Shown: positions 1,409-15,470 of the stretch, piece after piece
Numbering within the stretch: the stretch's first letter is position 1
Layout: the number at the start of each line of letters is the position of its first letter
Source of the DNA: Candidatus Nanohalobium sp.
Lineage (GTDB): Archaea; Nanohalarchaeota; Nanosalinia; Nanosalinales; Nanosalinaceae
Direction: 5' to 3'
DNA length: 18,014 bases
Assembly: GCA_042216335.1 (NCBI GenBank)
Contig: JBDGTY010000049.1
Location: 1-18,014, forward strand
Made by a program: the position numbers and the translations under genes
The notes under the pieces: model-generated
The model's input: only the letters and a program-made list of their open reading frames with translations
Database searches by the model: none
Told to the model about the DNA's origin: nothing

Positions 1409-2530
1409 CTAGTAACTTATCTCCGGACTTTCCTCCCTATCCCATAACCTCATCAACTTGTTCAGCTTGGCGATCCTTATGTCGGCGATTCCGGCTTTGA
1501 TGATGGGGCAGGTCCATTCCAGCGCCAGGTCCGAGATTGTGGAGTCGCAGGTTTCTCCGGAGCGGTGTGAGATAACCGGTGTGTAGTCGTATTCCTGTGC
1601 CAGTTCTACTGTTTCTTTGGCGTCTGAAACTGTTCCTATCTGGTTGGGTTTGACGATCAATGAGTTGCATGAGCTCATGTCGATTCCCTCCTGTAGCCTG
1701 TCTTTGTTGGTTGTGAATAGGTCGTCGCCGCAGATCAACACATCGGGATTCTTAGCCGTGAGCTTGGCGTGGTTCCTGAAGTCCTCCTGGTCGAAAGGAT
1801 CCTCGACATACACCAGTTCGAATTCGTCGATCAGTTCCTGCACGAAGTCAAGCTGCTGTGGACCTGAGTTTACTTCTCCGAGTGATTCCATCCTGTACTT
1901 GCCGTCCTCGTAGAACTCTGAGGCTGCGATATCCAGGCCTATCCTTGCGCCGTGTTCATCGGCCACATCTTTCAGGGCTCGCAGTGTCTCCCGGTCGTTC
2001 ATCGATGTTATCAGGGCGCCTTCGTCGTTCATGCCTTTGATCCTCTGGCTGTACCTTTCCTGCAGCTCCTGGTAGATAGAAGTATTGATTTCAAGTGCTT
2101 CGGGGAATGTTTCGGCCTCCACGGGAAGCACGAGGAACTCCTGGATGCTTGTGTTGCCGCCATGTTCTCCTCCGCCTATGACGTTGCTTAGCGGCAGAGG
2201 GAACTCTTTTCCGCGGTCGAAGCCGGCCGCATTTTTGAAGGCGAAGCTCGAAGCGATGGCTGCGGCGCCGAGACGAGAGAAGTCGTCCGATCCGTCCACC
2301 TCTTCCAGTTCTTCGTCGAACTCTTCCTGTGTCAGGTCCCGACCCTCGAACCGGTTCTTCAGTAGTTCCTCTATCTCGTCGAGGTGCTGTGGTACGTGGC
2401 AGCTGGCTTCGTGTTCACCGGTTGAGGCTCCTGAAGGCGCCTTTCCATAGCTTCCGTTGATCTCTGCCTCAATTGTGGGTTTGGTCCTCGAGTCGATTAT
2501 CTGCCGGAGCTCTAGGCTCTCGATCCTCAT
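1409..2530 (-). CDS. eno: Enolase (compact, 373 aa)
   Basis: DSR.PTIE, PSGASTG, GGGEH, IQEF, DEGA, LDIAASEF, VEDPF, GDDLFTTN, KPNQIGT, SHRSGET and IKAG motifs. Confidence 0.95.
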   Translation of the reverse strand: MRIESLELRQIIDSRTKPTIEAEINGSYGKAPSGASTGEHEASCHVPQHLDEIEELLKNRFEGRDLTQEEFDEELEEVDGSDDFSRLGAAAIASSFAFKNAAGFDRGKEFPLPLSNVIGGGEHGGNTSIQEFLVLPVEAETFPEALEINTSIYQELQERYSQRIKGMNDEGALITSMNDRETLRALKDVADEHGARIGLDIAASEFYEDGKYRMESLGEVNSGPQQLDFVQELIDEFELVYVEDPFDQEDFRNHAKLTAKNPDVLICGDDLFTTNKDRLQEGIDMSSCNSLIVKPNQIGTVSDAKETVELAQEYDYTPVISHRSGETCDSTISDLALEWTCPIIKAGIADIRIAKLNKLMRLWDREESPEISY

Positions 2531-2599
2531 GCAGTGAAGTTCGGTTAGCTGGAATAAAAAGAACCTGCTGGAGTAAATTAAAGGGAAGAAATATGTGGT

Positions 2600-2764
2600 C
2601 TATTTCCTGACTGTCAGTGGAAGCGTGCCTTGCTCCATCTCCCTTTCAGCGATCTGCATCGGCTGCTCATCTCCCTCTACATCGACGAACGCCGGTGCAC
2701 CCATCGCCAGCTGGAGGCTGCGTGCTCCCAGAATCCTTGCCTTCTCGTAACGTGTGTAACTCAT
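2600..2764 (-). CDS. rpoK: DNA-directed RNA polymerase subunit K (Rpo6)
   Basis: Not in ORF track. Hand translation MSYTRYEKARILGARSLQLAMGAPAFVDVEGDEQPMQIAEREMEQGTLPLTVRK (54 aa) carries the TxYExARIxGARxLQxxMGAP signature. Confidence 0.96.
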   Translation of the reverse strand: MSYTRYEKARILGARSLQLAMGAPAFVDVEGDEQPMQIAEREMEQGTLPLTVRK

Positions 2765-2773
2765 AATATCAGT

Positions 2774-3535
2774 TTATCCGATGTACCCGAGGTCGGAACT
2801 CTGCTGTTCTTCCTCAGGCTTCTGTGATTTTTTCAGGTTCTGAAGCTTTTTAAGTACCTCCTGCGACTCCTCGACCTTCTCGTCAAGCTTCGAGTAATCC
2901 AGGTCAAGCTCGAGGACATCCTCAAGAACCTGCAGAACTGCCTCTGTACTTTTCGGATCGCTCAGCAGGAAGCCGGGTGTCTCGCCCAGAAGGCAGAGGC
3001 CGTCCATATCTCTGTCCTGTGCCAGTCCGATCAGCAGTCCTGAGATGCCGACCACCTGGCCGACATCGTGCTCGAACTCGATACCTGCACTGTACTTCTC
3101 CTTCATGTCCTCCGTGGAGACGGCGCCGAACACGCTCGGGTCCTCTACGACGTCGCCGGTGCCGTATCCTCCGACAGTTATAATCTCCTCGGCTTCCTGC
3201 TCCTCGATGAAGTTCATGACTTTTTCCGCGACCTCGTGGTGGCCTTCAGGAGTTCCTGCCTGGGCATTACCTTCGAGAAGGATGATATCTCTTCCTTCGT
3301 CACGTGAAAGTGCGTAGATTTTGTTTTTGATAGGTTCAACTGTTTTATCATCGTTTACGATCGTGTGAGGAGGAAAGTGGTGGCTTGTTATCTCTCCTAC
3401 CTGTTCAGCACCTGTCTCATCCGCTATATAGCTTACGGTGTTCCGGCCGATATGTCCGATCCCGGCCAGTCCCTCTACGAATACAGGGTTTTCAGTTTCC
3501 AGTTCGCTGTCTATCTTGATCCTTGTCTTCTCCAT
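2774..3535 (-). CDS. Proteasome assembly chaperone family protein (PAC2)
   Basis: 'EGLAGIGHIG', 'GNAQ', 'ITVGGY', 'VGISGLL' and 'CLLGETPG..SDPKS'; canonical position after nop10; GGTGA Shine-Dalgarno-like site upstream. Confidence 0.92.
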   Translation of the reverse strand: MEKTRIKIDSELETENPVFVEGLAGIGHIGRNTVSYIADETGAEQVGEITSHHFPPHTIVNDDKTVEPIKNKIYALSRDEGRDIILLEGNAQAGTPEGHHEVAEKVMNFIEEQEAEEIITVGGYGTGDVVEDPSVFGAVSTEDMKEKYSAGIEFEHDVGQVVGISGLLIGLAQDRDMDGLCLLGETPGFLLSDPKSTEAVLQVLEDVLELDLDYSKLDEKVEESQEVLKKLQNLKKSQKPEEEQQSSDLGYIG

Positions 3536-3546
3536 AAAATCACCTT

Positions 3547-3693
3547 TTAATCTCCGCCTTTTTTGGCTTTACGCCGATACTTTCCATACCTGTCCGGGAA
3601 AGAAAACTTCGGCGGCCGAGCTTTCTCCGAACCTTCCCCACAGTGCTCATCCTTCAACGTAAAATTTCCGCACTCGGTACATTTCCGAATCAT
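3547..3693 (-). CDS. nop10: H/ACA RNP protein Nop10
   Basis: Not in ORF track. Hand translation MIRKCTECGNFTLKDEHCGEGSEKARPPKFSFPDRYGKYRRKAKKGGD (48 aa) has the RKC..CG..TLK and PPKFS..D.YG.YRR signatures; lies between aIF2-alpha and PAC2. Confidence 0.93.
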   Translation of the reverse strand: MIRKCTECGNFTLKDEHCGEGSEKARPPKFSFPDRYGKYRRKAKKGGD

Positions 3694-3695
3694 CC

Positions 3696-4451
3696 TTACG
3701 CACGCGAGAACTCGAATCTTCCATCTTTTTCATCAGCTCTGCTCCGGATCTTGTCGACTGCCTCATCCATCCTCTTCTTCGCCAGGTCTTGGGTACGTCC
3801 CCAGGACGTGATGGAGTACTCAGGAGCGGAAACGTACTTTACCTCGACACCGTCGCCGAGATCCTCGAAACAGTCCCTGATCTTCTCGATACCGTTCTCT
3901 GACATGAACTCGAGTTCGATCTCGCCTTCAAACTTCTCCTGCTTCAGGTCGATGTTTTCTTTCGCGACTTCCTGGATTTTCTCCACGACCTCATCATTAA
4001 GGAACTCCTTCAATCTTTCCTCTTCCGCAGTTGAGATCTCGAATCCATGGAACGCTGAGCCAAGCTCGCGCTGCATAGGGAAGACGACTTCCTCGTACAT
4101 CTCATTCTCATCCATGTCGAGGTCTTCCAGAAGGTCTTCGATGAACTTCTCCGCCTTCTGCTCCTTGTTCCAGCGGCCCATCGCCTCCTTCTTATTCTTA
4201 TCATTTACACGCTTCAATGAAAGCGTAACAGTATCGTCATCAGCATCGATAACCTGGGCAACAGTCTTCTCGCCCTCATCTATCTCCTTGGTCAAATCCT
4301 CAACCCAGCTACGCGACGCCTCACTGATGTGAATCAAACCACTCACATCTTCATACTCATCAAGGTCCGCGTAAGCCGAATTCCTGTCAACATCCGAAAT
4401 CGTGACAACCACAAGGTCGCCCTCATCCGGCCTATCCTTATACCAGCGCAT
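3696..4451 (-). CDS. eif2a: Translation initiation factor 2 subunit alpha (aIF2-alpha)
   Basis: S1 domain 'PDEGDLVV...AYADLDEY...GLIHISE...WV', 'LSLKRV' and C-terminal 'YVSAPEY'. Confidence 0.95.
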   Translation of the reverse strand: MRWYKDRPDEGDLVVVTISDVDRNSAYADLDEYEDVSGLIHISEASRSWVEDLTKEIDEGEKTVAQVIDADDDTVTLSLKRVNDKNKKEAMGRWNKEQKAEKFIEDLLEDLDMDENEMYEEVVFPMQRELGSAFHGFEISTAEEERLKEFLNDEVVEKIQEVAKENIDLKQEKFEGEIELEFMSENGIEKIRDCFEDLGDGVEVKYVSAPEYSITSWGRTQDLAKKRMDEAVDKIRSRADEKDGRFEFSRA

Positions 4452-4487
4452 ACAGAGAAAAGGAGAAGTGATTCTTAAAAAGCAATT

Positions 4488-4889
4488 CTAATTATCCCAA
4501 TAATTCCACGTAGACATAAATTCTTCCATACTAGTGGCTTGGGAACCTAGGGACTTGAAGAACTGTTGTTGAGCTGCTGGATTATTCTGTAGTTCAATCA
4601 TCGATTTGTTTTCACTTTCTGCCATTATCTGTGCGCTCATTTGTAGGAACCAATATGCATCTGAATCCTCTTTTAATCTGTATTTCTCTGAACTATCGTC
4701 CTGTTTAACTTCTAGCATATCCATTTCCTCCATTTCTTCCAAGACTTCTTTTGGAGGATTAGTCCCAGACAGTCGAGCAAGATCTGACCTGTCGATATAA
4801 TTATCTCTCTCGCTCTTCAGAGCTTCAAGTGTTCTGGTGAAACTGGGGTCTTTCAGATTATCTAAAATCCTTTCGTTGTTGTTTTCCAT
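4488..4889 (-). CDS. Hypothetical protein, probable winged-helix fold; AT-rich insert
   Basis: 133-aa acidic ORF; 'IDRSDLARLSGTNPPKEVLEEMEEMDMLEVKQ...KYRL' resembles a wHTH pattern; lower GC than neighbouring genes. Confidence 0.6.
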   Translation of the reverse strand: MENNNERILDNLKDPSFTRTLEALKSERDNYIDRSDLARLSGTNPPKEVLEEMEEMDMLEVKQDDSSEKYRLKEDSDAYWFLQMSAQIMAESENKSMIELQNNPAAQQQFFKSLGSQATSMEEFMSTWNYWDN

Positions 4890-4906
4890 TCTTTCGATAT
4901 ATTCGT

Positions 4907-5062
4907 TTACAAATTCATCATGTCTTCTTTCTCATCAAAGTAGTGTACAAGGAATGTGTTTTCAGCATATGGCCTCTGTGGGATATCAACAACTTCTCCC
5001 TCAACTAGAACCGATCCTCTGTCCCAGTCAATCTCTTGGAAAGACTCAAATTCATATTCCAT
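4907..5062 (-). CDS. Hypothetical 51-aa protein, possibly the frameshifted N-terminus of the 4488-4889 ORF
   Basis: Not in ORF track. Hand translation MEYEFESFQEIDWDRGSVLVEGEVVDIPQRPYAENTFLVHYFDEKEDMMNL; acidic like the rest of the proteome and fills the gap. Confidence 0.55.
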   Translation of the reverse strand: MEYEFESFQEIDWDRGSVLVEGEVVDIPQRPYAENTFLVHYFDEKEDMMNL

Positions 5063-5150
5063 TAAGTAGAAAATTAAACTCAAACTTTCATATTTCTGGA
5101 TATGCCTGCTAGAATAGAATACTATCCGCAGAACAAAGTAAAAGAAAAAT

Positions 5151-5324
5151 TTACTCTACTTCTAACGTCTCAATGATCTCTGCGTTCAGCTCTGCCTTGC
5201 CGCCTGTCGGCTTTGCGATTGGAGTCGAACAGATCATGCAGTCGACTTCTGTTGCGGTCCTTGAGAATACTGTCTGTTCGTTTCCGCATTCTGCGCATGA
5301 GACTCTGAAAAAGTTACGTGCCAT
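5151..5324 (-). CDS. rps27e: 30S ribosomal protein S27e
   Basis: Not in ORF track. Hand translation MARNFFRVSCAECGNEQTVFSRTATEVDCMICSTPIAKPTGGKAELNAEIIETLEVE with CxxC...CxxC and PTGGKA; GAGGTGA Shine-Dalgarno site upstream. Confidence 0.96.
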   Translation of the reverse strand: MARNFFRVSCAECGNEQTVFSRTATEVDCMICSTPIAKPTGGKAELNAEIIETLEVE

Positions 5325-5378
5325 TTACTGGCTCACCTCGTGTGTCAGTTTGAGAAAATCTTGCATTTTCGATTACCT

Positions 5379-5681
5379 CTATCTTTCTATCTCGAATTTT
5401 GCTGCTCTTGGCTGGTTTCTAGGCTTCCAGGCCTTTCCACACTCCTTGCATGAGAACTGAAGGTCGTGCTTGCTGGAGGTCGGATTACTCTTTCCTCTGG
5501 CCAGGTGTGAAGGGTCTTCGAACGGGAAGCTTCCGTATCCGTTGTCGATCTTTCTCTGGCGCTTCCTGTGCTTCTTGCTCCAGGGACTGGCACTCTGGTT
5601 AGTCGCCTCTTTCACTGTTTGCTCCGTGTGCTCATCGCAGTTCGGGCAATACCTTCTCTGCTCTTTCGGAATCTTTACCAT
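5379..5681 (-). CDS. rpl44e: 50S ribosomal protein L44e (eL42)
   Basis: MVKIPK...RYCPNCDEHT, GYG and CKECGK; adjacent to S27e. ATG at 5681 has TTTTTAAA 24-31 nt upstream. Confidence 0.94.
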   Translation of the reverse strand: MVKIPKEQRRYCPNCDEHTEQTVKEATNQSASPWSKKHRKRQRKIDNGYGSFPFEDPSHLARGKSNPTSSKHDLQFSCKECGKAWKPRNQPRAAKFEIER

Positions 5682-5720
5682 ATCAAACAACTCCCCGGTT
5701 AAACTTTAAAAACACTCTAC

Positions 5721-6179
5721 TCAAAGGCCGGATTTCTCGATAGCCAGTAAGCAGGCATCCCGCACATTTTCAGGAATTTCCTCAAGTTCCTCTAACTCTT
5801 CTTTTGAGAACCATTTCTGGCCGTCGTGTTCATGGCTGTGCGTTGCCTCAACCTTCTCAACTGGCCTGGCCAGGTAGTTGAAGTCGCAGTGCATATGGTT
5901 CTCGGAGATGCTGTGCAGATTTACATTGAACGGAGACGGCAGATTATCGCTTTCCTCGGATTGAATCTCTGGCCTGTCCAGGAACTTGATTTTCACGCCG
6001 ACTTCTTCCCGAGTCTCTCTTCTTGCTGCCTCTTCCGGAGTCTCACCTTCTTCGATATGGCCGCCGGGCTGAATCCACTCTCCAAGCTTTGAATGCTTCA
6101 TCAACAGAACTTCGGAATCTTCGTTCACAATGAATGCCGAAGCAGTAAAGTCCTGGTCAGCGTCTTCAGGTACTTTCAT
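5721..6179 (-). CDS. Nudix hydrolase
   Basis: Nudix box GGHIEEGETPEEAARRETREEVG; 'FTASAFIVN', 'HSKLGEWIQPGGH' and 'HMHCDF'. Confidence 0.93.
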   Translation of the reverse strand: MKVPEDADQDFTASAFIVNEDSEVLLMKHSKLGEWIQPGGHIEEGETPEEAARRETREEVGVKIKFLDRPEIQSEESDNLPSPFNVNLHSISENHMHCDFNYLARPVEKVEATHSHEHDGQKWFSKEELEELEEIPENVRDACLLAIEKSGL

Positions 6180-6598
6180 AGGTCTTCACTTTCAAGCAAC
6201 TCTATTATTCCTTCGGTCGTTTTGACTTCTACTCTGTTCTGTTTCCGGAGGTCTTTGTCGTCGCTCCAGATTCTGCATTCTTTGTGGAGGGCTGCTGCTA
6301 TGAAAGGAACATCTTTGATGTCTTCTTCGCCTACCAATTTCTCTGCTTTGTCCAGTTTATCTTCGTAGCTTTCGATAGGTAGAAACTCTACTTCTCCGAG
6401 AACCAGGTCTAGGAGTGTTTCAACCTCGTCTTCCTTCAAACCGGATTTCTCCTTCATTAGGTCCCTGTACTTCTCTATCTCGGTTCTCAGGAACTCTGGT
6501 GCATAGAATCTATAGTTGGAGTCCAGAATTATCTTCCTCGTTGAACTGTCTCTGATCAGGGCAGAGATGACTATGTTGCTGTCAACTACTAGTTCCAT
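6176..6598 (-). CDS. PIN-domain toxin (VapC-like)
   Basis: 'LVVDSNIVISAL', 'APEFLRTEI', 'DIKDVPFIAAAL' and 'IWSDDKDL' acidic PIN motifs. Confidence 0.9.
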   Translation of the reverse strand: MELVVDSNIVISALIRDSSTRKIILDSNYRFYAPEFLRTEIEKYRDLMKEKSGLKEDEVETLLDLVLGEVEFLPIESYEDKLDKAEKLVGEEDIKDVPFIAAALHKECRIWSDDKDLRKQNRVEVKTTEGIIELLESEDL

Positions 6599-6822
6599 CA
6601 GTTCAAACTGTGTTTCTCGGCGATTCCCTGCTTCACTTTTTCTCCAATCTCCTGAACATCATCTTCAGTAAGTTCGCTATCTGAAGCTATGGAATCCGCC
6701 AGTTCAAGTTTCTTAATTTCCTCTCTAAAAGCCTCTCTGGCTATTTCACTCCAGTTAATCTTTCCGTGCTCTTCCATCGACTCTTTCAGATCATCCGGGA
6801 CTCTAACCGAAACCTTCGACAT
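6598..6822 (-). CDS. Ribbon-helix-helix antitoxin (VapB/CopG-like)
   Basis: 'VSVRVPDDLKESME..INWSEIAREA' RHH pattern; stop overlaps the PIN gene start (TGATG). Confidence 0.87.
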   Translation of the reverse strand: MSKVSVRVPDDLKESMEEHGKINWSEIAREAFREEIKKLELADSIASDSELTEDDVQEIGEKVKQGIAEKHSLN

Positions 6823-6827
6823 GGTAT

Positions 6828-6853
6828 ATACATGTATGGACAGAAATTTAAAT
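6828..6853 (-). promoter_or_regulatory. TA operon promoter with TATA box and candidate operator palindrome
   Basis: ATTTAAAT at 6846-6853, 24-31 nt upstream of ATG 6822; perfect 10-bp palindrome ATACATGTAT at 6828-6837. Confidence 0.6.
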
Positions 6854-6868
6854 CTTCGTAAAATACAC

Positions 6869-7504
6869 TCAGTAAGTGATCTTCGTGCCTTCGGCCTCTT
6901 CAGGATCTTCCAGATTCTCCAGAGTTCCTTCCATGACTTTTGCTGGTATACCGGATCTCTCGATTATCTCTAGCGCAGTCTTGTCGATAAGTTCGTATGT
7001 GCCGGCCTCGCTGCTGTTTCCACTGACTATCTCCCTCAGCTTTTCTACTGAAACTTCGCCAAGCTTCTCCGCATCGTCTTTCTCCGGATTTTCTGTGTAA
7101 ACTCCATCTATATCCGTCGTGATGTAGAGCTCGGCGTCCAGAAGTTCTGCTGCGATCGCTGCCACCGCATCAGTCGAGAAACCTGGGTTCAGTCCACCCA
7201 TAACTATATCTTCTCCGGTCTGAGCTACTTCCTTGATTTCTTCTGCTGTTTCCGGGGTCTTTGGATGTGCATCCATCTGTGTTCCCAGCGTCCGTGCGTT
7301 CAGACGTGTGGCCTGTATCCCTATCAGGTCTTTATCCGCCTGCAATGCTTCGACTGCGTTGATGTTCTTTTTCAGTTCTCCTGCGCCCACAACCACGCAT
7401 ACCGGGCTGTACTGCTTCAGTGCCTCCGCCATTTCGGGAGTTTGCTCTATTTTAGATGTATAAATCGATCCGCCGACTGCAAAGACTTTTTCGTATTCTG
7501 ACAT
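6869..7504 (-). CDS. pyrH: Uridylate kinase (archaeal-type UMP kinase)
   Basis: 'VGGS', 'VVVGAG', 'DLIGIQATRLNA', 'MGGLNPGFSTDAVAA' and 'TDIDGVYTENP'. Confidence 0.88.
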   Translation of the reverse strand: MSEYEKVFAVGGSIYTSKIEQTPEMAEALKQYSPVCVVVGAGELKKNINAVEALQADKDLIGIQATRLNARTLGTQMDAHPKTPETAEEIKEVAQTGEDIVMGGLNPGFSTDAVAAIAAELLDAELYITTDIDGVYTENPEKDDAEKLGEVSVEKLREIVSGNSSEAGTYELIDKTALEIIERSGIPAKVMEGTLENLEDPEEAEGTKITY

Positions 7505-7509
7505 CGTAT

Positions 7510-8187
7510 TCAGCTCAGCTGTTCTGCGTTTCCGCGGTTTACAAGTATTTCAGCGTTATCTTCGGGTATTTCTGCCTCCTCGCCCTCCTCGAAAGGTCCG
7601 TACGCCTCGAGGTCTGTTCCCATGAACTCCGGAACTTCAGAGGTTATCTCAACTATCTCGTATCCGTCTTCGGGGTCGTAATCCTCCTCTTCTCCCCTAT
7701 CTTTATCTTCTTCTGGTTCGGAAGGTTCTTCTACTTCTGCAGTAGATCCTTCAACTTTGCTTGTCTCTGGCTCAGACCTTCTCTTCTCTGCCGATTCTTC
7801 TATCTCTGGCTCGCTGTTTTCTGTCTCGACGGCCTGGCCTTCTGTCACTTCCTCCACTCTGTCTCTGTGTTGATTGAACTGTTTCTTCATATCTCTGAAG
7901 AGCTCCTCTTCTCTTGGAAGCATGTTCAGCTCGGAGGGCTGGATGTTGGATTTCAGGCTTAATCGAGCGTTCTTTACTATTTTGTCTTCCCGGAGACTGA
8001 GGATCTTCCTGAAAACTCTTTTGGCATTCTTGTACTCCCGACTGTCCTCATCGATATCTTTCTTTCTCTCCAGGTAGTCGCGTACCTGCAGGAAGAAGTT
8101 CTGGTCGAGTTCCGTCAGTTCCTCCTCTCTGCGCTCTGTCTTCTGTATCTTTCTCAGTTCCGAGAATGTCAGTGCCTCGTCGCTCAT
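7510..8187 (-). CDS. gins51: DNA replication complex GINS subunit (Gins51/Gins15 type)
   Basis: Helical A domain ('LRKIQKTER...LTELDQNFF', 'LREDKIVKNA', 'NMLPREEELF'), acidic linker and B domain 'VPEFMGTDLEAYGPF..GE..EIPEDNAEILV.RG.A'; directly downstream of primase. Confidence 0.9.
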   Translation of the reverse strand: MSDEALTFSELRKIQKTERREEELTELDQNFFLQVRDYLERKKDIDEDSREYKNAKRVFRKILSLREDKIVKNARLSLKSNIQPSELNMLPREEELFRDMKKQFNQHRDRVEEVTEGQAVETENSEPEIEESAEKRRSEPETSKVEGSTAEVEEPSEPEEDKDRGEEEDYDPEDGYEIVEITSEVPEFMGTDLEAYGPFEEGEEAEIPEDNAEILVNRGNAEQLS

Positions 8188-8227
8188 CTACCTGAAACTT
8201 CCCTGAGAAATCTTTTATTGTGGAAGG

Positions 8228-9616
8228 TCACGAGATTTTCCTGACTTCTCCGTCGCCATCGCACTCCTGGACGTGCTGCCTGTAGTAGTGCTCGCTCTTG
8301 TACTCCTTCCCACAGTATGGGCACTCCATCTTCTCATCGTCCTCATCGGAACTTTCCGAATTTTCTCCTCCAGTCCGGTTCGCCTTCCTGAACGCATAGC
8401 TCACAGGATTCGGCACCTGCTCCTCCAGGTTGTCGCCCTCATACACCTGCATATCCCTGTAGTATCCGTTGGCATCGTAGTTCGGCGGGGGAACGTCCTC
8501 GTCGCGGTTCTCATGCCAGTTCAACTGGGATTTGACGTAAGCCTCCCGGAGCGGCTCCTTGTTCTCATCGTTCCACGCCCACACCTTCGAACGGATCTCC
8601 TCCCACGAGTATCCGAGACACCGGAAAAAATTGATCAATATGAACAGCCCGCGCTTCCTGCCGTCCTCCAGACCCTCCAGGATATTGTTTATCGTCGGAG
8701 GGAAGTACTTCTCCGGTATCGCATCATCCGGCCGTTCAAACTCCCTGTCCTTCTCGATCCGCTCCTCTTTCCGCTCCTTCCTTCTGGACTCTATGAAGTC
8801 CATGGCCTGGATCGCCAGGTTCGCGGCCTCTCCCTCCTCATACTCTTTCAGGAAGCTCTCCTCGAACTCTATCTCATCCATCTCCGCCTCCGACTTCTCA
8901 AAATCTATGATATGGCTAGGTTGAATCGGCTTCGACACGAGCCAGGAACCGTCATGCAGCGAGTAGGGCATCCTGAAGAGGTGGCGCTGACCCCAGTCGT
9001 TCTCTATATCCGCGACCTGGAAGGGATCCTCGCCATCTTCGGTCTGGATCTCCTCCTCGAAGCCGTACTCTTCGACTTTCCGGATAAGCTCCTCCTCCAC
9101 GTTCTCCCTGATGTAATCAACGATGCCACGGCCCAGGTTCGGGTACAGCTGGGAGAATTTTTCGCCGCCGATCTCCTCGGGGAACGCCTCTCCCCTGACA
9201 CCGATGTGGAAGCCTCTGTTGCCGGAGAACTTTACGCTTATGTTTTCTATTCCGTGCTGCCGCAGCTCCTCGACTACAAGAACGGCAGTCTCTTTGGAAA
9301 GCTCGAAGCTCTCGTCGCAGTCGATGTCGATGACCAGATCCCAGTTCTCTCTCAAGTCGTCCAGATCTGACACATTGTCGATGAGGAGAGGGTTCCTCCA
9401 TCGCTCAACGGAGGCATGAAAAGCAACTGCGCCATTATTTACAAAGTCAAGAAAGTCGCCAGGAAAGTTTATCGCATCCGGCCTCCTGCCGTACCCGTTG
9501 GGATATGTCGGGGCTACCTCGCGGTACTGTGCTGTCTCGACGAATATCTCGACGAGTTCGTCCTGCTCGTAGTACTGTCTTATCTTCCACTCGCGTGGTT
9601 CCCCGTCCTCCCCCAT
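8228..9616 (-). CDS. Fused DNA primase PriS-PriL (DPANN type) with C-terminal zinc finger
   Basis: AEP motifs 'WDLVIDID', 'KFSGNRGFH' and 'RHLFRMPYSLH', then PriL-CTD-like 'FPPTI..IL.GLEDGRKR.LFIL.NF...PPPN...NPVSY', then CPYC-x12-H-x3-C. Confidence 0.92.
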   Translation of the reverse strand: MGEDGEPREWKIRQYYEQDELVEIFVETAQYREVAPTYPNGYGRRPDAINFPGDFLDFVNNGAVAFHASVERWRNPLLIDNVSDLDDLRENWDLVIDIDCDESFELSKETAVLVVEELRQHGIENISVKFSGNRGFHIGVRGEAFPEEIGGEKFSQLYPNLGRGIVDYIRENVEEELIRKVEEYGFEEEIQTEDGEDPFQVADIENDWGQRHLFRMPYSLHDGSWLVSKPIQPSHIIDFEKSEAEMDEIEFEESFLKEYEEGEAANLAIQAMDFIESRRKERKEERIEKDREFERPDDAIPEKYFPPTINNILEGLEDGRKRGLFILINFFRCLGYSWEEIRSKVWAWNDENKEPLREAYVKSQLNWHENRDEDVPPPNYDANGYYRDMQVYEGDNLEEQVPNPVSYAFRKANRTGGENSESSDEDDEKMECPYCGKEYKSEHYYRQHVQECDGDGEVRKIS

Positions 9617-9647
9617 ACTCTGAGTTTCTCAACTTAATCCTAAAATA

Positions 9648-10064
9648 CTAGTCCTCTTCCAGGAAGGTCTCGATGAAGTCCGCAGTACTGTCGTTTATGT
9701 CAAGCTCTTCCAGAGCCTCTCTAGGGTCGATCCAGGTATAGTCCACTGCTTCTCTCTGATCCAGCTCGACATCAGTTGTTTCGGCCCGGCACACGAAGTT
9801 CAAGAAGATGAAATGCGTATCTCTTTCGAAGTCGTCAGGGTTGCCGCCGTCCTTGACTTCAGGAAGCTCGATGTCTGAAACTTCCAGATTAGTCTCCTCC
9901 TTGATCTCCTTCCTGACGGTCTCTTCCATCGAGTCGCCTTTCTCGACTTTGCCACCAGGCACAAGCCACTGATTCTCCCATTTAGGGCTTTTCATGAGAA
10001 AGATTTCGTCATCTTCGTCTAGGATTAGTGCGCCTGTTGCCGGGACTGCGTATTCTTCGGTCAT
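9648..10064 (-). CDS. Nudix hydrolase (NudF-like position between PCNA and primase)
   Basis: Nudix box GGKVEKGDSMEETVRKEIKEETNL; 'KSPKW..W.VPGG' and 'HFIFL'. Confidence 0.92.
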   Translation of the reverse strand: MTEEYAVPATGALILDEDDEIFLMKSPKWENQWLVPGGKVEKGDSMEETVRKEIKEETNLEVSDIELPEVKDGGNPDDFERDTHFIFLNFVCRAETTDVELDQREAVDYTWIDPREALEELDINDSTADFIETFLEED

Positions 10065-10084
10065 GTTGTAGATAAGATTTCCAT

Positions 10085-10414
10085 TTATTCAAGATTGTCC
10101 TTCAGTTTCTCTTTGATATCTTCCCAGTCTTCCTGTGAAGCTATGTCCCATCTTGGGGTCCCGCCGTCCCATATCTGATTGAGATAACCCAGGTCTGATT
10201 TCAGGCCTCCAAGTACCTGTCCTGTATACATCTCACTGATTTCAGCTGCCTTCGCTATCTCCTCTGTTGAGTACAAACTGTCGCCGTAGCCTTTTCCCAC
10301 TCTGGTTTTTAAGGTGTCTAGGGCATCAATTACTTCTTCGTAAATTCCTGTCTTGAAGGCTTCTCTCCGCAGTTTCGGCATCTCTTCAATCTTTTCCGAA
10401 ATTTCCTTACTCAT
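10085..10414 (-). CDS. Hypothetical protein (possible wHTH)
   Basis: 109-aa acidic ORF co-oriented with the operon; 'YSTEEIAKAAEISEMYTGQVLGGL...GYL' resembles an HTH. Confidence 0.65.
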   Translation of the reverse strand: MSKEISEKIEEMPKLRREAFKTGIYEEVIDALDTLKTRVGKGYGDSLYSTEEIAKAAEISEMYTGQVLGGLKSDLGYLNQIWDGGTPRWDIASQEDWEDIKEKLKDNLE

Positions 10415-10439
10415 GACCTTCTCACAGGGTTTCCAGTTT

Positions 10440-11204
10440 TCACTCTTCCTCTATGCGTGGCGCCAGCACGAAGTTGAGTTCGACTTCGTCCGGTCGGATG
10501 AACTCCATCCTCATCGGGAAGTCTTCGCCCAGTTTGACTGTGACAACGTCTGTCAGCTTCTTGGCGCCGATCATCTTTGAGAGGTAGTCGAGGCTGAACA
10601 TCGAGCGGGCGTCGCTGCCGTTCATCTCGTGGACTCCTTCTGCTCCTTCCTCTACCGTGAAGTCTACTCCTGACTGATCTCCTTCGGCTGATATCTCGAG
10701 CTGTGAGCCGGTTGCGGAGACTGTAACTGCGTCGGATACGACCATCGCGTCCTTGATGGCTCCTTCAAGTACCGAGGTGTCGAGTTCTGCGTCGAACGTG
10801 AACTGGTCGAGGTCGCCGACGCTCGGAATATCGTCCTCGGAAAGGTTGAGGATCGGTAGTGAGAAATCTCTTGTAGAACTGTTCTCCATGGTGATCTTGA
10901 ACTTGGAGGAGTCCTCATCGACCTCCAGTGTGATGGTATCGCCCGAGTTTGCTCTTCTCAGAATCGAGTAAAAGTTTTCGATATTTAATCCGACTTTCTG
11001 TTCTTCATCTATCTCGTATGTTTCGAACACGTCTTCTTCGAGTGTGAAGTCCACGAGCCCGACCATTGCAGGGTCTGCTGCCACTAGATGGATTCCATCC
11101 TCCTTCAGCTGAAACAGGCCCTCGCTGATCAGGTCGCTTATGGTTTTCATCGAGTCCTTCAGAAGTCCGACTTCCTCTATTTCCGCTTTGAACATTTCAA
11201 CCAC
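10440..11204 (-). CDS. pcn: DNA polymerase sliding clamp (PCNA)
   Basis: 'LISEGLF...GI.LVAADPAMV.LV', 'SMFSLDYL', 'LGEDFPM' and 'FVLAPRIEEE'. Start is GTG 11204 or ATG 11195. Confidence 0.96.
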   Translation of the reverse strand: MVEMFKAEIEEVGLLKDSMKTISDLISEGLFQLKEDGIHLVAADPAMVGLVDFTLEEDVFETYEIDEEQKVGLNIENFYSILRRANSGDTITLEVDEDSSKFKITMENSSTRDFSLPILNLSEDDIPSVGDLDQFTFDAELDTSVLEGAIKDAMVVSDAVTVSATGSQLEISAEGDQSGVDFTVEEGAEGVHEMNGSDARSMFSLDYLSKMIGAKKLTDVVTVKLGEDFPMRMEFIRPDEVELNFVLAPRIEEE

Positions 11205-11209
11205 TTATG

Positions 11210-11539
11210 TTACTGTGAAGTGTTAACTACTTTTTTAACTCTGTCGTGAAGCTTCTGATCTACGTCGGAGAAGTCCTGTACGATTTCTCCCTGGATCTCG
11301 AAGCTGTCGGGCGTCGGCAGCACTCTTCCGAGAACCCGGATTCTCTGGTTCTCCTCGACGTCTTCAAGATCCTCGTCTTCCAGGAATACCTCGACCGTTC
11401 CCGTTCCGTCATCCAGGCTGACGGAGTCTTCCTCGACTGATAGTACGGTTCCGACTATCCTTACACGGATGTCGCTCTGTGGCTCGATTTCGTCTATGTT
11501 TTTCGGCCTGGCCGGCGCTCTCCTCTGATTCTCTGGCAT
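11210..11539 (-). CDS. Small single OB-fold protein, replication protein A small-subunit-like
   Basis: From ATG 11539: MPENQRRAPA...IRVRIVGTV...LDDGTG.VEV...IRVLGRV...EIQGEIVQ. The longer track ORF (to 11896) extends into the antisense of the next gene. Confidence 0.8.
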   Translation of the reverse strand: MPENQRRAPARPKNIDEIEPQSDIRVRIVGTVLSVEEDSVSLDDGTGTVEVFLEDEDLEDVEENQRIRVLGRVLPTPDSFEIQGEIVQDFSDVDQKLHDRVKKVVNTSQ

Positions 11540-11541
11540 GT

Positions 11542-11595
11542 AAACGACTGGTCGGTAAAACGTTTTAACTGGATGCGGTCTCCGAAGTTTGAAAT
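11542..11595. promoter_or_regulatory. Divergent promoter region between the OB-fold gene and the coiled-coil gene
   Basis: Perfect 12-bp palindrome TAAAACGTTTTA at 11556-11567; CGAC-TG-GTCG at 11545-11554; TTTGAAAT at 11588-11595, 24-31 nt upstream of ATG 11619. Confidence 0.5.
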
Positions 11596-11618
11596 ACCGG
11601 CTTCGCCAAGTCAAAGGT

Positions 11619-12197
11619 ATGGACGTTCTCGGGAAGGAAGGTGAACAGGCAGCGGAGGCAGTGCAGAACCTTTCGCAGCGGCTGGAAGACCTTGAATCCC
11701 ACCTCAACGCCGTCGACTCTGCAGTCCAGGACAACTCCGAGACCACACGTGAACTAGCCCAGAAGAACAGGCAGCGAGTGGCCGAGATAGAGGAGATGCT
11801 GGTCGAACTAACCGAAATCCAGAAGAACAGCATGAAAGAAATCGACGTAGAGGATGGAAAAGAGGCCAGACTGGAGAAGAAAGTCGACGCTCTCAAAGAG
11901 AAACTGAGAAGAATGAAGGAGAACCAGGAGGAGATCGAGACCCGTCTGGAGAAACTGGACAGACAGCTTAACAGGAAGATGGGGAAGATCGAGAAGAAAG
12001 TCTTCAGGACCGAGGACGAGTTAACTCAGGAGATCGAGTTGAACACTGGCCGAATCGGCGACCTGTCAGACGTCAAGGTCGACAGGAAGACTCACGAAGA
12101 CGATATCCAGGAACTGAAGAAGGATATCTCGAAGCTCAGGACTTCCGTGAACGCTCTGGCTACGGAGCTTGAAGACGAAAATATCAGGGTCGAATAG
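11619..12197 (+). CDS. Hypothetical coiled-coil protein
   Basis: 192 aa from ATG 11619; E/K/L-rich heptad-like pattern throughout, no prolines; codon style matches core genes. Confidence 0.8.
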   Translation: MDVLGKEGEQAAEAVQNLSQRLEDLESHLNAVDSAVQDNSETTRELAQKNRQRVAEIEEMLVELTEIQKNSMKEIDVEDGKEARLEKKVDALKEKLRRMKENQEEIETRLEKLDRQLNRKMGKIEKKVFRTEDELTQEIELNTGRIGDLSDVKVDRKTHEDDIQELKKDISKLRTSVNALATELEDENIRVE

Positions 12198-12290
12198 TTA
12201 GGAGTTATCAGTGCTTTTTCTGCTGAATCTCTGAGTAATCTGTTTCTTGGTCTTTTCAGCGGCTTTCTTGCGTAATCTCATATCTGCCCC

Positions 12291-12623
12291 TCAGTCGTAT
12301 TCTTTGTGGACGTTCCCGCAGTCGGTGCATCTGTAGAACCTTGTCGGTGGCTCGTCGCTGGCTCGTGTCTGTTTCATCCAGAACTCGCATTCCATGTTTC
12401 CGCATGCCGGGCATTCTTTCTCGGTGGTAGGGTGCTCCGTTTCGTCGTTGTCGCCTTCGTTGACGTTGAGGCGGTCCATAGGGTCTTCCTCTTTTTCATC
12501 AGTCACCTTCATGTCGTCGGCGTCTACATCCTGGTATTCTCCGCAGCTGCGGCACTTCATCACCGATTCGCCATCCTTCTTCTCGGAGACAAGCATGCCT
12601 CCGCATTCATCACAGAACTCCAT
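12291..12623 (-). CDS. tfs: Transcription factor S (TFS)
   Basis: MEFCDECG...CRSCG N-terminal ribbon; C-terminal CPACGN...QTRASDEPPTRFYRCTDCG with the catalytic DE pair. Confidence 0.95.
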   Translation of the reverse strand: MEFCDECGGMLVSEKKDGESVMKCRSCGEYQDVDADDMKVTDEKEEDPMDRLNVNEGDNDETEHPTTEKECPACGNMECEFWMKQTRASDEPPTRFYRCTDCGNVHKEYD

Positions 12624-12660
12624 GTTTGACACAGTTAGAAGAGGAAAAGTTAAAAACTAT

Positions 12661-13392
12661 CTACCCTCTACAGGAGTAACTGTTCTCGATGACTACTGGG
12701 GCGTTGCCCGGCTGGAAACCTATGAGGTCCATCGCCAGAAGCTTCACGGCGCCGACCCGTGGAATTTTGAACATCGTCGTGCCGTGGATCTGGAAAGGCC
12801 GGACACTTGACTCGAAGTCGAGTTGACCGGAGTTGGCGTCTCCTTTGGTCTCAAGATGGTCCTCACTCTTGCTTATGACTCTGTGGACGACCGGGATGGG
12901 CATAGCTGAGATCCTTTCGACCTTCAGCCTCGCACCGTTAACCGAGACGCTTCCACCATCAGTCACAGTGACTTTCTCTCCCTCGATTGAGAGCAGGGCT
13001 CTGTCATTACCGGTCTTGAGATTGGCCTCAGCTTCCAGAAGCTGTACAGTCCCGACGCTGGTTTCAACCGAGGTGTTGTACATCGGAGAGTTCTTCTCCA
13101 AGGTGTAGCTTTCCCCGTTCAGTGTGAAGTCGATCCTGTCCGGCACCCTGTAGATCACGACATCACCTTCCTCTATCTCGGAATAATCCATTCCATCCAC
13201 AACCAGAATATCACCTTTCTGGTACTCCGGATACATCGAACACGAAACCACGGAAACGACAGGCTTGTCGGTTTGCAGAACGGTGCCCGTGGTTTTGATG
13301 GTGCCGAACGCCAGGATCAGCGCGAGCGAAAGGAAATAGAACCATTCAAACAGTTCGCTTTCCCCGTCCATTATATTTTCAAAGAACTCCAT
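12661..13392 (-). CDS. Signal peptidase I (archaeal Sec11 type) with internal insertion
   Basis: N-terminal TM segment, 'VVSCSMYP...KGDILVV', 'GDVVIY', 'PVVHRV', 'TKGDAN' and 'KIPRVG'. Confidence 0.9.
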   Translation of the reverse strand: MEFFENIMDGESELFEWFYFLSLALILAFGTIKTTGTVLQTDKPVVSVVSCSMYPEYQKGDILVVDGMDYSEIEEGDVVIYRVPDRIDFTLNGESYTLEKNSPMYNTSVETSVGTVQLLEAEANLKTGNDRALLSIEGEKVTVTDGGSVSVNGARLKVERISAMPIPVVHRVISKSEDHLETKGDANSGQLDFESSVRPFQIHGTTMFKIPRVGAVKLLAMDLIGFQPGNAPVVIENSYSCRG

Positions 13393-13405
13393 GGAACTGG
13401 TTTCC

Positions 13406-13951
13406 TCACTCAGGATTTAAAGCCCTTCCTACCATATCCGCGACACGAATCGACTCCGGAACCTGGCCGTGAACTATGTTCTTCCTCACGAAACCCTCCG
13501 CATCTTTCCTGGAACAGCCCGAGAACTGGATGAAACACTTTCCGTCCTCCAGCTCGACTTCGACAGCTTCTTCAAACTTCTCGAACCTTTCATCGTAGTT
13601 ATCCGTCCTCTTCATCGCCTTCCTGAAGCCTCTCCTGTCCGGCCGGTTCTTCGTTACGGCCACGACTGGTTTACCTATCTTCTCCGCCACTTCGTCGATG
13701 TCTACAAGGTTGAAGCCGCCGAAAGCTATGCCGTCGGTCAGAACTGCCTTGATCTGCTGGTGGTTGGAGAATTCCTCGTAAAGTTCCAGAACCTTCTCTG
13801 TGGCATCCTCCCCGTCAACCTCTACTTCAATACTCTGGATGTCCTCGATGAACTCGCTTCCTCTGTAGACGACGCCGGTGAGAAAAGTTTTCTCCGACTC
13901 AAATTCGAAGGATGCATCGTCAATGCCGAGAACCCTGATGCCGTCTTTCAT
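13406..13951 (-). CDS. DUF99 family endonuclease V-like protein
   Basis: 'IRVLGIDD', 'GVVYRG', 'VDGEDAT', 'DGIAFGGFNLVD', 'KPVVAV' and 'VPESIRVA'. Confidence 0.9.
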   Translation of the reverse strand: MKDGIRVLGIDDASFEFESEKTFLTGVVYRGSEFIEDIQSIEVEVDGEDATEKVLELYEEFSNHQQIKAVLTDGIAFGGFNLVDIDEVAEKIGKPVVAVTKNRPDRRGFRKAMKRTDNYDERFEKFEEAVEVELEDGKCFIQFSGCSRKDAEGFVRKNIVHGQVPESIRVADMVGRALNPE

Positions 13952-14298
13952 AGCTTTCTAGTCTTTATCTGGTCTTCTCTAGCGATTACTAAGTTGCCTT
14001 CTATCTTGTCTCCGTGGTTTTCCAGGATGTTCTCAAGCACTTTCTTCTTGTTCTCCGGTGTCTCCAGCTGAAGCCGCAGAAGCAGTATTCCTTCCGCATC
14101 TCTTCCCTCTCTTATGGTGAGTTCTCCGAAGTCCTTGTCGTTAGTAACTATGATCCTTTTTTCTTCCAGAGCTCTCTCCATTATCTCGGAGTCGCTCGCA
14201 GACTTCATCTCCGCTCCGACAAAGACAGTATCGTAGCCTCCTTCTTCAAGGAAATCGGCGATGCTTTTTCCTGTACTTTCGTCAACTATGAACTTCAA
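13948..14298 (-). CDS. DUF5615 (Mut7-C/PIN-like) toxin
   Basis: 'MKFIVDES', 'L...GYD', 'SDSEI...A..E.RIIVTNDKDFGEL' and 'GILLLRL'. Confidence 0.88.
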   Translation of the reverse strand: MKFIVDESTGKSIADFLEEGGYDTVFVGAEMKSASDSEIMERALEEKRIIVTNDKDFGELTIREGRDAEGILLLRLQLETPENKKKVLENILENHGDKIEGNLVIAREDQIKTRKL

Positions 14299-14524
14299 GG
14301 TCTCCGCCCTCTGCAGGATAGACTGACACCTCTTCGAGCGTTTCCGCAGCGTATTCCAGTGCAGCCCTTACATCTTCCTCCTCAAGGTTGGGATACTCCT
14401 CAAGTATTTCTTCGACTTCCAGGCCGTGGGCCAAGAGCTTGACGATCTTCTCCACAGGTATTCTCGTACCCTTGATCACAGGCTTGCCTGTCATCTTCTC
14501 CGGATCAACTTCAACTCGCTCCAT
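14282..14524 (-). CDS. DUF433 family antitoxin
   Basis: From ATG 14524: 'VDPEKMTGKPVIKGTRIPV..I..LLA.G...EEILEEYP.LEEEDVRAALEYAA'. Confidence 0.92.
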   Translation of the reverse strand: MERVEVDPEKMTGKPVIKGTRIPVEKIVKLLAHGLEVEEILEEYPNLEEEDVRAALEYAAETLEEVSVYPAEGGDLEVHS

Positions 14525-14609
14525 AACTAGAATTTTTCTGGACAGAGTCAAAAGCCTTACCTTTTCAGGCGAAGAGTTTTTACGAGAAAAGAAGCAATAG
14601 TGAAGAAAT

Positions 14610-14852
14610 TTAGACCTGTTCTTCCAGGTCGTTCATCCATTCCCGGGCGGTCTCGATCGCGTCTTCGAGTGTCTGTTCCGGGTTGTCGTCTTTGATGACG
14701 AGGTTGGATTCGTCGCCGAGCGGGTGGCCTTTGTCGTATCCCGCTTCTCCGTCGTTCGCCCATATCGCCTTCCTGATCAGGTTGGCGAGGGTATGGTTTT
14801 GCTGCATGTCGACGATAAGCCGGTCCTCTTTCTCCACGGTCTCAAGTTCCAT
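14610..14852 (-). CDS. rpoL: DNA-directed RNA polymerase subunit L (Rpo11)
   Basis: 'HTLANLIRKAI...AGY...HPL' signature, 80 aa. Confidence 0.9.
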   Translation of the reverse strand: MELETVEKEDRLIVDMQQNHTLANLIRKAIWANDGEAGYDKGHPLGDESNLVIKDDNPEQTLEDAIETAREWMNDLEEQV

Positions 14853-14858
14853 TGGTTA

Positions 14859-15449
14859 TCAAGTTCTCCTTGTTATTATCAGGTCTACAGGGGTTTCACG
14901 GCCTTCCTCGGTGTGAAAGCCGTAGCTCGCAGGCAAAACTATTTCGTATTCCTGCACACCCTCAAGTTTATGGTTAGAACTTCGGACCAAACTTTTTATA
15001 CTGTCACGGGCGTCCCGTGGAGAAATACCATACACTGCATCAGAGACCTCGATGGCCTTCTCCCAGAACGAAAGCCCGGTATCCGAGTGAATGGAGAACG
15101 GAGGGTTCATGACTGCGGTGTCTGTGCTTCCATTGAAGTCTCCAACATCTTTTTCGACAAAATTTACTTCAGCTCCGGCCTCTTCAGCGTTCTTCTTGGC
15201 GATCTCCAGTGCTTCACTGTCCTTCTCCACGGCCGTGACTTCGCCGCCGACTTTCGCCGCCCCGATTGCCAGAATCCCTGTACCTGTTCCAAGATCCACG
15301 ACCTTTTTCTCCTCGATATCGTCCTGCATATACGCCGTGTAGATTAAATCTGCGGCCAGTGCTGGAGGCGTGATGTACTGCTCCAGTTTTATTCTCGGGT
15401 CTTCAAAGTCGCTGACCTTTGAGAGGACTTGACGTAGCTGGTTTTTCAT
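14859..15449 (-). CDS. METTL5-like SAM-dependent N6-adenine RNA methyltransferase
   Basis: 'P.IKLEQYITP', 'VDLGTGTGILAIGA', 'MNPPF' and 'LPASY.FH'. Confidence 0.92.
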   Translation of the reverse strand: MKNQLRQVLSKVSDFEDPRIKLEQYITPPALAADLIYTAYMQDDIEEKKVVDLGTGTGILAIGAAKVGGEVTAVEKDSEALEIAKKNAEEAGAEVNFVEKDVGDFNGSTDTAVMNPPFSIHSDTGLSFWEKAIEVSDAVYGISPRDARDSIKSLVRSSNHKLEGVQEYEIVLPASYGFHTEEGRETPVDLIITRRT

Positions 15450-15470
15450 TTCTGGTTCCTCATCAGACCT

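Follow-up and report, generated by a model that had tools for sequence, protein, structure and literature searches.

What the iron-sulfur (Fe-S) cluster of archaeo-eukaryotic primases does is disputed, and it has been regarded either as a redox switch that works through DNA charge transport or as a structural element. Monomeric primases that join PriS- and PriL-type parts in one chain have been described in Nanoarchaeum equitans (NEQ395) and in further DPANN archaea (PMC10250227, PMC3914693, bioRxiv 10.64898/2026.06.17.729505). NEQ395 binds a [4Fe-4S] cluster through C289, C364, C376 and C384, is brown and absorbs at 410 nm. Each of its single Cys-to-Ala mutants still primes, mutations of R301, R303 and F306 cripple initiation while sparing extension, and the contribution of the cluster is called 'enigmatic' in the same paper (PMC10250227). 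In Saccharolobus solfataricus the primase works without the PriL Fe-S domain; its PriX subunit contacts the triphosphate of the initiating nucleotide through 72-RKR-74 and shows that priming does not need the cluster (PMC5700102). So far, dispensability has been supported by in vitro work on engineered mutants and chimeras and by PriX, which stands beside a cluster-bearing PriL.

Here we analyze a primase gene carried by an 18,014-nucleotide stretch of DNA from Candidatus Nanohalobium sp. (assembly GCA_042216335.1, contig JBDGTY010000049.1, positions 1 to 18,014 of the forward strand; "the window" below means this whole stretch). The gene, at 8228-9616 on the minus strand, very probably encodes a DPANN single-chain primase made of PriS and the C-terminal domain (CTD) of PriL, in which the four ligand positions are occupied by T308, Y380, Y392 and E398 and which is predicted to prime without an iron-sulfur cluster. 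Since the ligands have been lost from the only primase that could be detected, the locus provides a natural means of testing the cluster's purpose.

Identity and ligand columns of the primase

We compared the 462-aa protein with domain, sequence and structure collections. Pfam, with scores that are all sub-threshold or borderline, matched PriS (PF01896) at residues 97-231 (E 1.3e-5), LigD Prim-Pol (PF21686) over the catalytic region (E 1e-5) and, weakly, PriL (PF04104) at residues 274-341 (E 0.046); NCBIfam returned weak PriS matches and nothing more. A word-indexed search found 2257 homologues, the best 120 of which are 64-88% identical and, wherever the source is named, come from Nanohaloarchaea, Nanohalobium, Nanosalina or Nanohalococcus. 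When 1.84 billion cluster representatives were searched with a profile, 778 relatives emerged, 319 of them at E <= 1e-30 and the best at E 1e-176. The query groups with the named Nanohaloarchaea loci, and the other named loci belong to Aenigmat-, Woese-, Pace-, Nano- and Undinarchaeota. With the whole structural model, Foldseek recovered Prim-PolC, LigD-pol and PriS chains (E 8e-9 to 1e-5), and D97, D99 and H137 are invariant in an alignment of 123 sequences (A3). Membership in the DPANN ('Nanostetteria') family of monomeric PriS-PriL primases, of the NEQ395 type, is supported. A sequence-only reading of this DNA had already named a fused PriS-PriL primase, and the Pfam matches to both parts, the family search, and the CTD profile and structural matches given below bear this out.

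In order to locate the ligand columns, the query was aligned with the 150 best family representatives (151 rows). Most rows share the pattern FPPC ... PPNC ... (V/I)CxPDxxC ... KNPxxY. At the four Cys columns of this pattern the query reads T308, Y380, Y392 and E398, and the earlier claim that all four ligands had been lost therefore stands; even the replacements guessed by eye (T, Y, Y and E or a neighbour) are right, the fourth being E398 itself. The strings quoted for that claim (YFPPTINNIL..., VPPPNYDANGYYRDMQVYEGDNLEEQVPNPVSY and FRCLG) are all present in the translation, and the span 8390-8710 corresponds to residues about 303-409. The protein contains five Cys in total, namely C100 in the catalytic DIDCD motif, C333, C432, C435 and C452. 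C333, in FRCLG, is the sole Cys of the PriL-CTD-like domain and had been judged off-pattern, in keeping with its variability among relatives: over 67 rows the column holds T in 32, C in 13, H in 10, A in 4, Q in 4, S in 2, N in one and a gap in one. The spacing between successive ligand columns is 72, 12 and 6 in the query, close to the 75, 12 and 8 between the published ligands of NEQ395, matched here by motif and spacing. A 394-aa relative, P0205, was tried as a stand-in for NEQ395 and set aside because its Cys 296, 367, 379 and 385 differ from the published numbering.

Across the family the ligand state is nearly all-or-none: four Cys are found in 111 of the 151 rows, none in 26 (called cluster-free here), a partial set in 10, and 4 rows are incomplete. 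Column 2 is aromatic (Y, F or W) in all 26 cluster-free representatives. Together with the PriL-CTD fold of the model, the non-Cys columns support the proposal of a naturally cluster-free primase CTD, which we would describe as a natural, conserved variant of a known primase family. As a separate observation, between one and three ligand Cys remain in the 10 partial representatives and in three named loci (P0173, P0232, L077, P0130 and P0262 among them); several of these partial forms have a His beside the lost positions and may be intermediates or use alternative ligation.

Distribution of the ligand loss

In the window's phylum, as defined by the Genome Taxonomy Database (GTDB), a CTD match was found in 66 of the 70 species genomes, the four without a match being 69-90% complete. 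We scored all 66 matched stretches from the other 65 genomes. In sixty-three, none of the four columns holds a Cys; L152, with three columns covered, and L154, a fragment with two, are non-Cys where covered; and L143, from genome G001 of family f2, reads C-C-C-C and also carries the C-terminal finger discussed below. Counted by genome, 64 of the 65 have no Cys at any scored ligand column and one, G001, keeps all four. Because all four columns are non-Cys in 63 of the 66 other stretches, the loss is neither a chance event nor an assembly error. The replacements are specific to each family: columns 1-4 read T/S-Y-Y-E in f1, T-W/F-Y-T in f5, P-Y-P-E in f3 and P-F-I/L-L/I in f4, whose fetched stretch has no Cys anywhere. 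To judge by these columns, the ligand loss is ancestral to most of the phylum, with one family (G001) keeping four Cys. What we describe is the sole detectable primase of cellular organisms, without any of the four ligands, nearly phylum-wide and under strong purifying selection. One genome, G051, contains two cluster-free primase CTD copies (contigs C83 and C60; 72% and 67% identical to the query) and, given its listed contamination of 7%, two strains in one bin are likely.

For the wider family we used a named-locus sample: 80 stretches out of the 585 confirmed among 185,579 species genomes. In this sample all 19 complete loci at >= 47% identity are cluster-free, under the labels Nanohaloarchaea, Nanohalarchaeota, Asbonarchaeum, Nanoanaerosalina and unclassified archaeon or euryarchaeote. 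Every locus with an Aenigmatarchaeota or Undinarchaeota label retains four Cys, and seven cluster-free loci are labelled Woese-, Pace- or Nanoarchaeota, one of them Omnitrophota.

For a FastTree tree of 215 rows, we removed proteins longer than 620 aa and rows that were incomplete. In it the nanohaloarchaea make up a single clade of 28 rows, every one of them cluster-free (support 83), whose sister is the four-Cys, finger-bearing P0124 (support 91). Parsimony on this tree requires a minimum of 12 changes between none and four Cys, or 23 when partial states are counted. A quick IQ-TREE tree (LG+G4) of 90 selected rows gives 13 changes, and in it P0146 leaves the nanohaloarchaeal clade. A single clade of all cluster-free forms was rejected by an approximately unbiased (AU) test on the 90-row set, in which 34 rows are cluster-free (difference in log-likelihood 731, p 4e-88). 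As canonical PriL has four Cys at the same motifs, we read the changes as losses and not gains; a four-Cys clade nested in a cluster-free grade (supports 46-63) more likely reflects tree error or a further parallel loss than a regain. On these trees, the nanohaloarchaeal loss is one among many independent, all-or-none losses in the primase family. The four-Cys relative within the phylum and the many independent repeats provide matched natural pairs for testing the cluster's purpose.

Some labels and lengths in the family deserve mention by themselves. DPANN-type monomeric primases occur in metagenome-assembled genomes (MAGs) labelled Omnitrophota bacterium (L044) and Methanosarcinales (L054, L060, L069, L079), and two MAGs labelled Nanohaloarchaea (L024, L053) have four-Cys primases that share only 38-39% identity with the query and group apart from the nanohaloarchaeal clade. 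All seven are probably mis-binned or mislabelled; the 2026 preprint remarks likewise on some MAGs (bioRxiv 10.64898/2026.06.17.729505). Some family members reach 600-1000 aa through large extra N- or C-terminal regions fused to the primase (P0149, P0161, P0188, P0208, P0230, P0231, P0234 and others).

Fold, constraint and alternative explanations

To examine the fold, the whole protein was modelled with AlphaFold2 (AF2) from the 123-sequence alignment, giving a mean predicted local distance difference test score (pLDDT) of 93.3, with 93-98 over the CTD; modelled alone, the CTD reached 86.3, a value lowered by the acidic linker. A CTD-only profile of 80 sequences (A4), searched against the sequences of the PDB, matched one solved structure, PriL of Pyrococcus abyssi (9f26_B, E 3.8e-7), over the FPPC and PPNC...C.PD..CK..NP..Y segments. 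Two other searches were discarded as tests of the CTD: the whole-protein profile (A1) gave weak zinc-finger and PriS matches (E 0.004-0.01) and no PriL, and Foldseek with the whole model returned AEP (archaeo-eukaryotic primase) catalytic-domain matches alone and was silent on the CTD. VIA-align, a structural search over 48,161 chains independent of Foldseek, placed the yeast PriL Fe-S domain first (6di2_A, Z 8.6, root-mean-square deviation 3.8, 111 residues aligned), with model residues 1-121 aligned to chain residues 316-512. The next two were S. solfataricus 5of3_C (Z 7.5, 90 aligned), which is taken to be PriX from its 107-residue size, and human PRIM2 8d0k_E (Z 7.5, 117 aligned). After these come photolyases at Z 4.5-4.9, whose resemblance to the PriL-CTD is published (PMC2852410). 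The domain is thus confidently modelled as a PriL-CTD fold.

The sequence of this domain is under evident constraint. In 19 nanohaloarchaeal sequences 49 of 115 CTD columns are invariant, as are 89 of 253 catalytic-domain columns and 3 of 33 linker columns (residues 263-295), making the CTD the best-conserved segment of the protein among nanohaloarchaea. Nonsynonymous divergence (dN) of the CTD core against eight relatives is 0.04-0.16, with synonymous divergence (dS) saturated; dS could be computed for two of the eight pairs, which give omega values of 0.03 and 0.09, and was saturated or undefined in the other six. All 66 phylum rows spanning the basic motif R320-K321-R322 keep it, and F325 is kept in 63 of 66; G319 and R322 are invariant in A3. 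R320, R322 and F325 lie 12, 14 and 17 residues past ligand column 1, which, by motif and spacing, equals the distance of R301, R303 and F306 from C289 in NEQ395 (PMC10250227). By analogy with NEQ395 and PriX, the RKR motif of the CTD likely still binds the initiating nucleotide or the primer's 5' end, and the space of the former cluster would likely be filled by side-chain packing, to which the Y, F or W at column 2 of cluster-free forms may contribute.

Several points weigh against a cluster-free PriL-CTD. Foldseek with the CTD model gave no significant E value (none at E <= 0.001), although PriX (4wyh, 5of3_F; 4wyh best at E 1.4) and the yeast PriL-CTD (3lgb and others; E 1.7-2) ranked first. 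The VIA-align Z scores of 7.5-8.6 are within the range, below about 13, that helical models may give nonspecifically, although all three top matches are primase entries. Given this low specificity, the PriL-CTD identity rests on the sequence motifs, the profile match and the fold ranking together. For the nanohaloarchaeal primases the absence of the cluster is itself a prediction from sequence and fold; AF2 places no metals, and the meeting of T308, Y380, Y392 and E398 at the former cluster site is assumed. The ligand and RxR numbering of NEQ395 was mapped by motif and spacing, with no direct alignment. In the AU test the cluster-free group was set by the trait, yet after a first tree had been seen. 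Finally, the three Cys and one His of the C-terminal finger could in principle hold a different metal centre.

This last point bears on the idea that a redox-active metal centre at C432, C435, H448 and C452 functionally replaces the lost cluster. Three Cys and one His are used as ligands by some Fe-S proteins, and these residues are invariant in the 19 nanohaloarchaeal sequences and present in about 54-56 of the 67 phylum rows. However, their spacing (C432-x2-C435-x12-H448-x3-C452), the modelled beta-beta-alpha arrangement of two short strands and a helix, the weak zf-C2H2 match (residues 431-450, E 0.019, 15.9 bits against a 25.2-bit cut-off) and a VIA-align match to the CCHC finger of MOZ (1m36, Z 4.1 over 33 residues) are as expected of a classical zinc finger. 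The sequence-only reading had singled out the C-terminal CPYC/HxxxC as a place where ligand Cys might have been retained; we find it in a separate module, beyond a variable acidic linker of pLDDT 40-57. The finger also occurs in relatives that have the four ligand Cys, including G001, 6 of the 111 four-Cys representatives and ten named loci (L027, L028, L037, L039, L041, L042, L068, L071, L072 and L076; six labelled Aenigmatarchaeota and four unclassified archaea), so it is no stand-in for the ligands. Further, it is missing from cluster-free L019 (Asbonarchaeum), L021 (Nanoanaerosalina) and L022, and its distribution is therefore independent of ligand loss. The finger likely binds zinc as an accessory module unrelated to the loss, and a replacement of the cluster at this site seems to us very unlikely.

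A separate, unrecognised Fe-S-bearing partner might act in trans in place of the lost cluster, the role that PriL has next to PriX in the Sulfolobus PriSLX complex (PMC5700102). The window's genome is a draft of 1.02 Mb in 74 contigs, 96.2% complete, and a very divergent partner could evade profile searches. Nevertheless, PF04104, PF01896 and A4 each match this gene alone in the genome, where the two-subunit primase appears replaced, no separate PriS or PriL being among the profile matches. A search for the DnaG-type Toprim_4 domain likewise had no match in this genome and was positive in all 14 control genomes. The cluster-free CTD recurs in 64 of the 65 other matched genomes of the phylum, several of them single-contig, and NEQ395 is active as a monomer (PMC10250227); a partner in trans is hardly to be expected. 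Alternatively, the CTD could be a decaying remnant on which priming no longer depends, its Cys having gone in the general erosion of a reduced genome. The genome is small, DPANN proteins evolve fast, and ten of the 151 family rows have partial ligand sets. Erosion is contradicted by the share of invariant CTD columns relative to the catalytic domain, by the low dN at saturated dS and by RKR in every phylum row covering it, and deletion of the CTD of NEQ395 abolishes priming (PMC10250227). We strongly disfavour this remnant explanation, the least probable of those considered, and retain a functional CTD predicted to work without a cluster.

The features of the locus are listed in Table 1. The primase lies in a single-strand replication gene island (7510-11204, minus strand) that comprises PCNA, a 109-aa open reading frame (ORF), a NUDIX gene, the primase and Gins51.

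Table 1. Coordinates and evidence for the primase, its parts and its neighbours in the window
Feature	Residues	Position	Strand	Evidence or remark
Primase gene, single-chain PriS-PriL(CTD), 462 aa		8228..9616	-	ORF list and translation
AEP (PriS-type) catalytic domain	about 10-262	8831..9589	-	PF01896 E 1.3e-5, PF21686 E 1e-5
DIDCD motif with catalytic D97/D99		9314-9334	-	
H137 in SGNRGFH	137	9206-9208	-	
Long charged linker helix joining both domains	265-290	8747..8824	-	AF2 model
PriL-CTD-like helical domain without cluster ligands	296-419	8360..8731	-	model, profile, conservation
Ligand column 1, T308 (FPPC in four-Cys relatives)	308	8693-8695	-	alignment, codon verified
R320-K321-R322 basic motif, predicted holder of initiating nucleotide or 5' triphosphate	320-322	8651..8659	-	F325 follows
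Ligand column 2, Y380 (PPNC in four-Cys relatives)	380	8477-8479	-	alignment, codon verified
Ligand column 3, Y392 (VCxPD in four-Cys relatives)	392	8441-8443	-	alignment, codon verified
Ligand column 4, E398 (C five residues before NP in four-Cys relatives)	398	8423-8425	-	alignment, codon verified
Acidic linker	411-429			between PriL-CTD-like domain and C2HC finger
C-terminal C2HC module C432/C435/H448/C452, likely zinc finger	430-453	8258..8329	-	motif, model
Gins51, downstream neighbour		7510..8187	-	PF22090 E 1.7e-15, PF05916 E 1.8e-4
Amino-acid-kinase-family gene, after Gins51		6869-7504		
NUDIX gene		9648-10064	-	
109-aa ORF		10085-10414	-	no Pfam match
PCNA, upstream neighbour		10440..11204	-	PF00705 E 6e-20, PF02747 E 8e-8

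Iron-sulfur gene content and comparison with known primases

The window's genome carries SufB/SufD, a SufS-like desulfurase and one radical-SAM gene and so still makes Fe-S clusters. For this genome, an explanation of the cluster's loss by a loss of Fe-S biogenesis was rejected, as SufB/SufD and the SufS-like desulfurase are present. A search for Fer4 domains found none in this genome and some in all 14 controls. We extended the scoring to 39 genomes for Fer4 (PF00037, E <= 0.001) and 27 for SufBD (PF01458). Fer4 is absent from 10 of the 12 genomes with cluster-free primases (G000, G040, G002, G004, G013, G070-G076), occurs at least once in 22 of the 24 with four-Cys primases (G001, G080-G102), and counts 0, 7 and 0 in the three with partial ligands. 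SufBD was found in 8 of the 12 cluster-free-primase genomes and in 4 of 12 four-Cys genomes, a sample of the 24 made up of G001, G080-G089 and G093. The reciprocal pattern appears in two independent contrasts. One sets Nanohalarchaeota families f1 and f5 against G001; the other sets a Pacearchaeota-type cluster-free clade (G070, G072-G075: Fer4 0, 0, 0, 0 and 1; SufBD in 4 of 5) against its four-Cys neighbours (G081-G086: Fer4 1-3 each; SufBD in 0 of 6). The other two of the four contrasts are neutral or reversed (L082 against L046; L048 and L064 against L063 and L066), and family f4 (G004, 93% complete) has neither Fer4 nor SufBD. Since completeness is not given for G070-G102, kin are not independent and Fer4 scales with genome size, the pattern is a lead and not a result. 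In the two contrasts cluster-free primases reside in Fer4-poor, SUF-bearing genomes and their four-Cys sisters in Fer4-bearing, SUF-less ones, which is no more than suggestive.

Life in oxic brine had been proposed as a rationale for the loss. The retention of SUF and the absence of Fer4 agree with it in a suggestive way, but cluster-free forms are also found in L075, L044 and L055, MAGs with isolate names pointing to groundwater or soil, and in L021 (Nanoanaerosalina). With the two neutral or reversed contrasts as well, a simple oxic-brine cause is insufficient. Tentatively, and with more doubt than confidence, we propose that the cluster is dispensable in vivo for replicating the chromosome and has been discarded with all its ligands at least a dozen times in DPANN, preferentially where lineages with a ferredoxin-using, SUF-less gene set of anaerobe type shifted to a ferredoxin-free, SUF-bearing set of oxygen-tolerant type. 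If this is true, the cluster would be an oxygen liability or an iron cost and not a required redox switch, and family f2 (G001), with four Cys, and all other families of the phylum would form a natural before-and-after pair.

An observation on SufB itself concerns contig C58 of G000 (20167-21996; L083, L085), outside the window, where a SufB frame of 890 aa shows a split PF01458 match: the pieces aligned to profile positions 1-32 and 26-232 are separated by about 1.1 kb without a break in the frame, which suggests an intein within SufB. G079 and G087 have comparably long frames for this protein (852 and 870 aa).

It is already published that the fusion primase exists, that Nanohaloarchaea have it and that the cluster is dispensable in vitro. 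Our literature search found, in the parts of the sources available, no statement of ligand loss in nanohaloarchaeal or other DPANN monomeric primases, although supplementary alignments (PMC10250227, the 2026 preprint) could show it. For the earlier suggestion that some archaeal PriL lineages lack ligands, the only precedents we could document are PriX and the PriCT domains (PMC5700102, PMC5862659). To this we add a tally across the phylum with its one four-Cys family, the replacements typical of each family, a formal test that rejects one common origin, evidence that the zinc finger is distributed independently of the loss, and the Fer4/SUF lead.

The query resembles NEQ395 in having an AEP domain fused through a helix to a PriL-CTD and in being the sole primase of a reduced DPANN genome (PMC10250227). 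NEQ395 differs in its four Cys ligands and cluster, where all four query columns are non-Cys; also, as it is reported as residues 1-393 with the last ligand at C384, it has no room for the roughly 50-residue acidic linker and C2HC finger of the query. PriX (4wyh; PriSLX, 5of3; PMC5700102) is likewise a cluster-free relative of the PriL-CTD that bears RKR, but it is a separate subunit beside an Fe-S-bearing PriL, while the query domain is fused and no separate PriL is among the matches in its genome. The structural match to PriX covers model residues 8-100 alone and, unlike PriX, the query domain extends beyond the PPNY loop with helix 404-419. With the canonical PriL Fe-S domain (yeast 3lgb and 6di2, human p58C, 9f26_B, PF04104) the query shares FPPx, DG+K/R-R, PPNx and NPxxY. 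In its canonical form the domain binds a buried [4Fe-4S] cluster through four Cys, ligands that the query lacks, and forms part of a large subunit of its own, which has a PriS-binding domain at the N terminus and no zinc finger. Finally, PriCT-1 and PriCT-2 (of primases such as pRN1 ORF904; PMC5862659) are helix-bundle domains that also lack a cluster and are joined to an AEP domain; they are regarded as homologues of the PriL-CTD that initiation requires. They are parts of mobile-element enzymes and are related to the N-terminal sub-domain of the PriL Fe-S domain alone, whereas the query is a chromosomal replicative primase that retains the motifs of the full PriL Fe-S domain.

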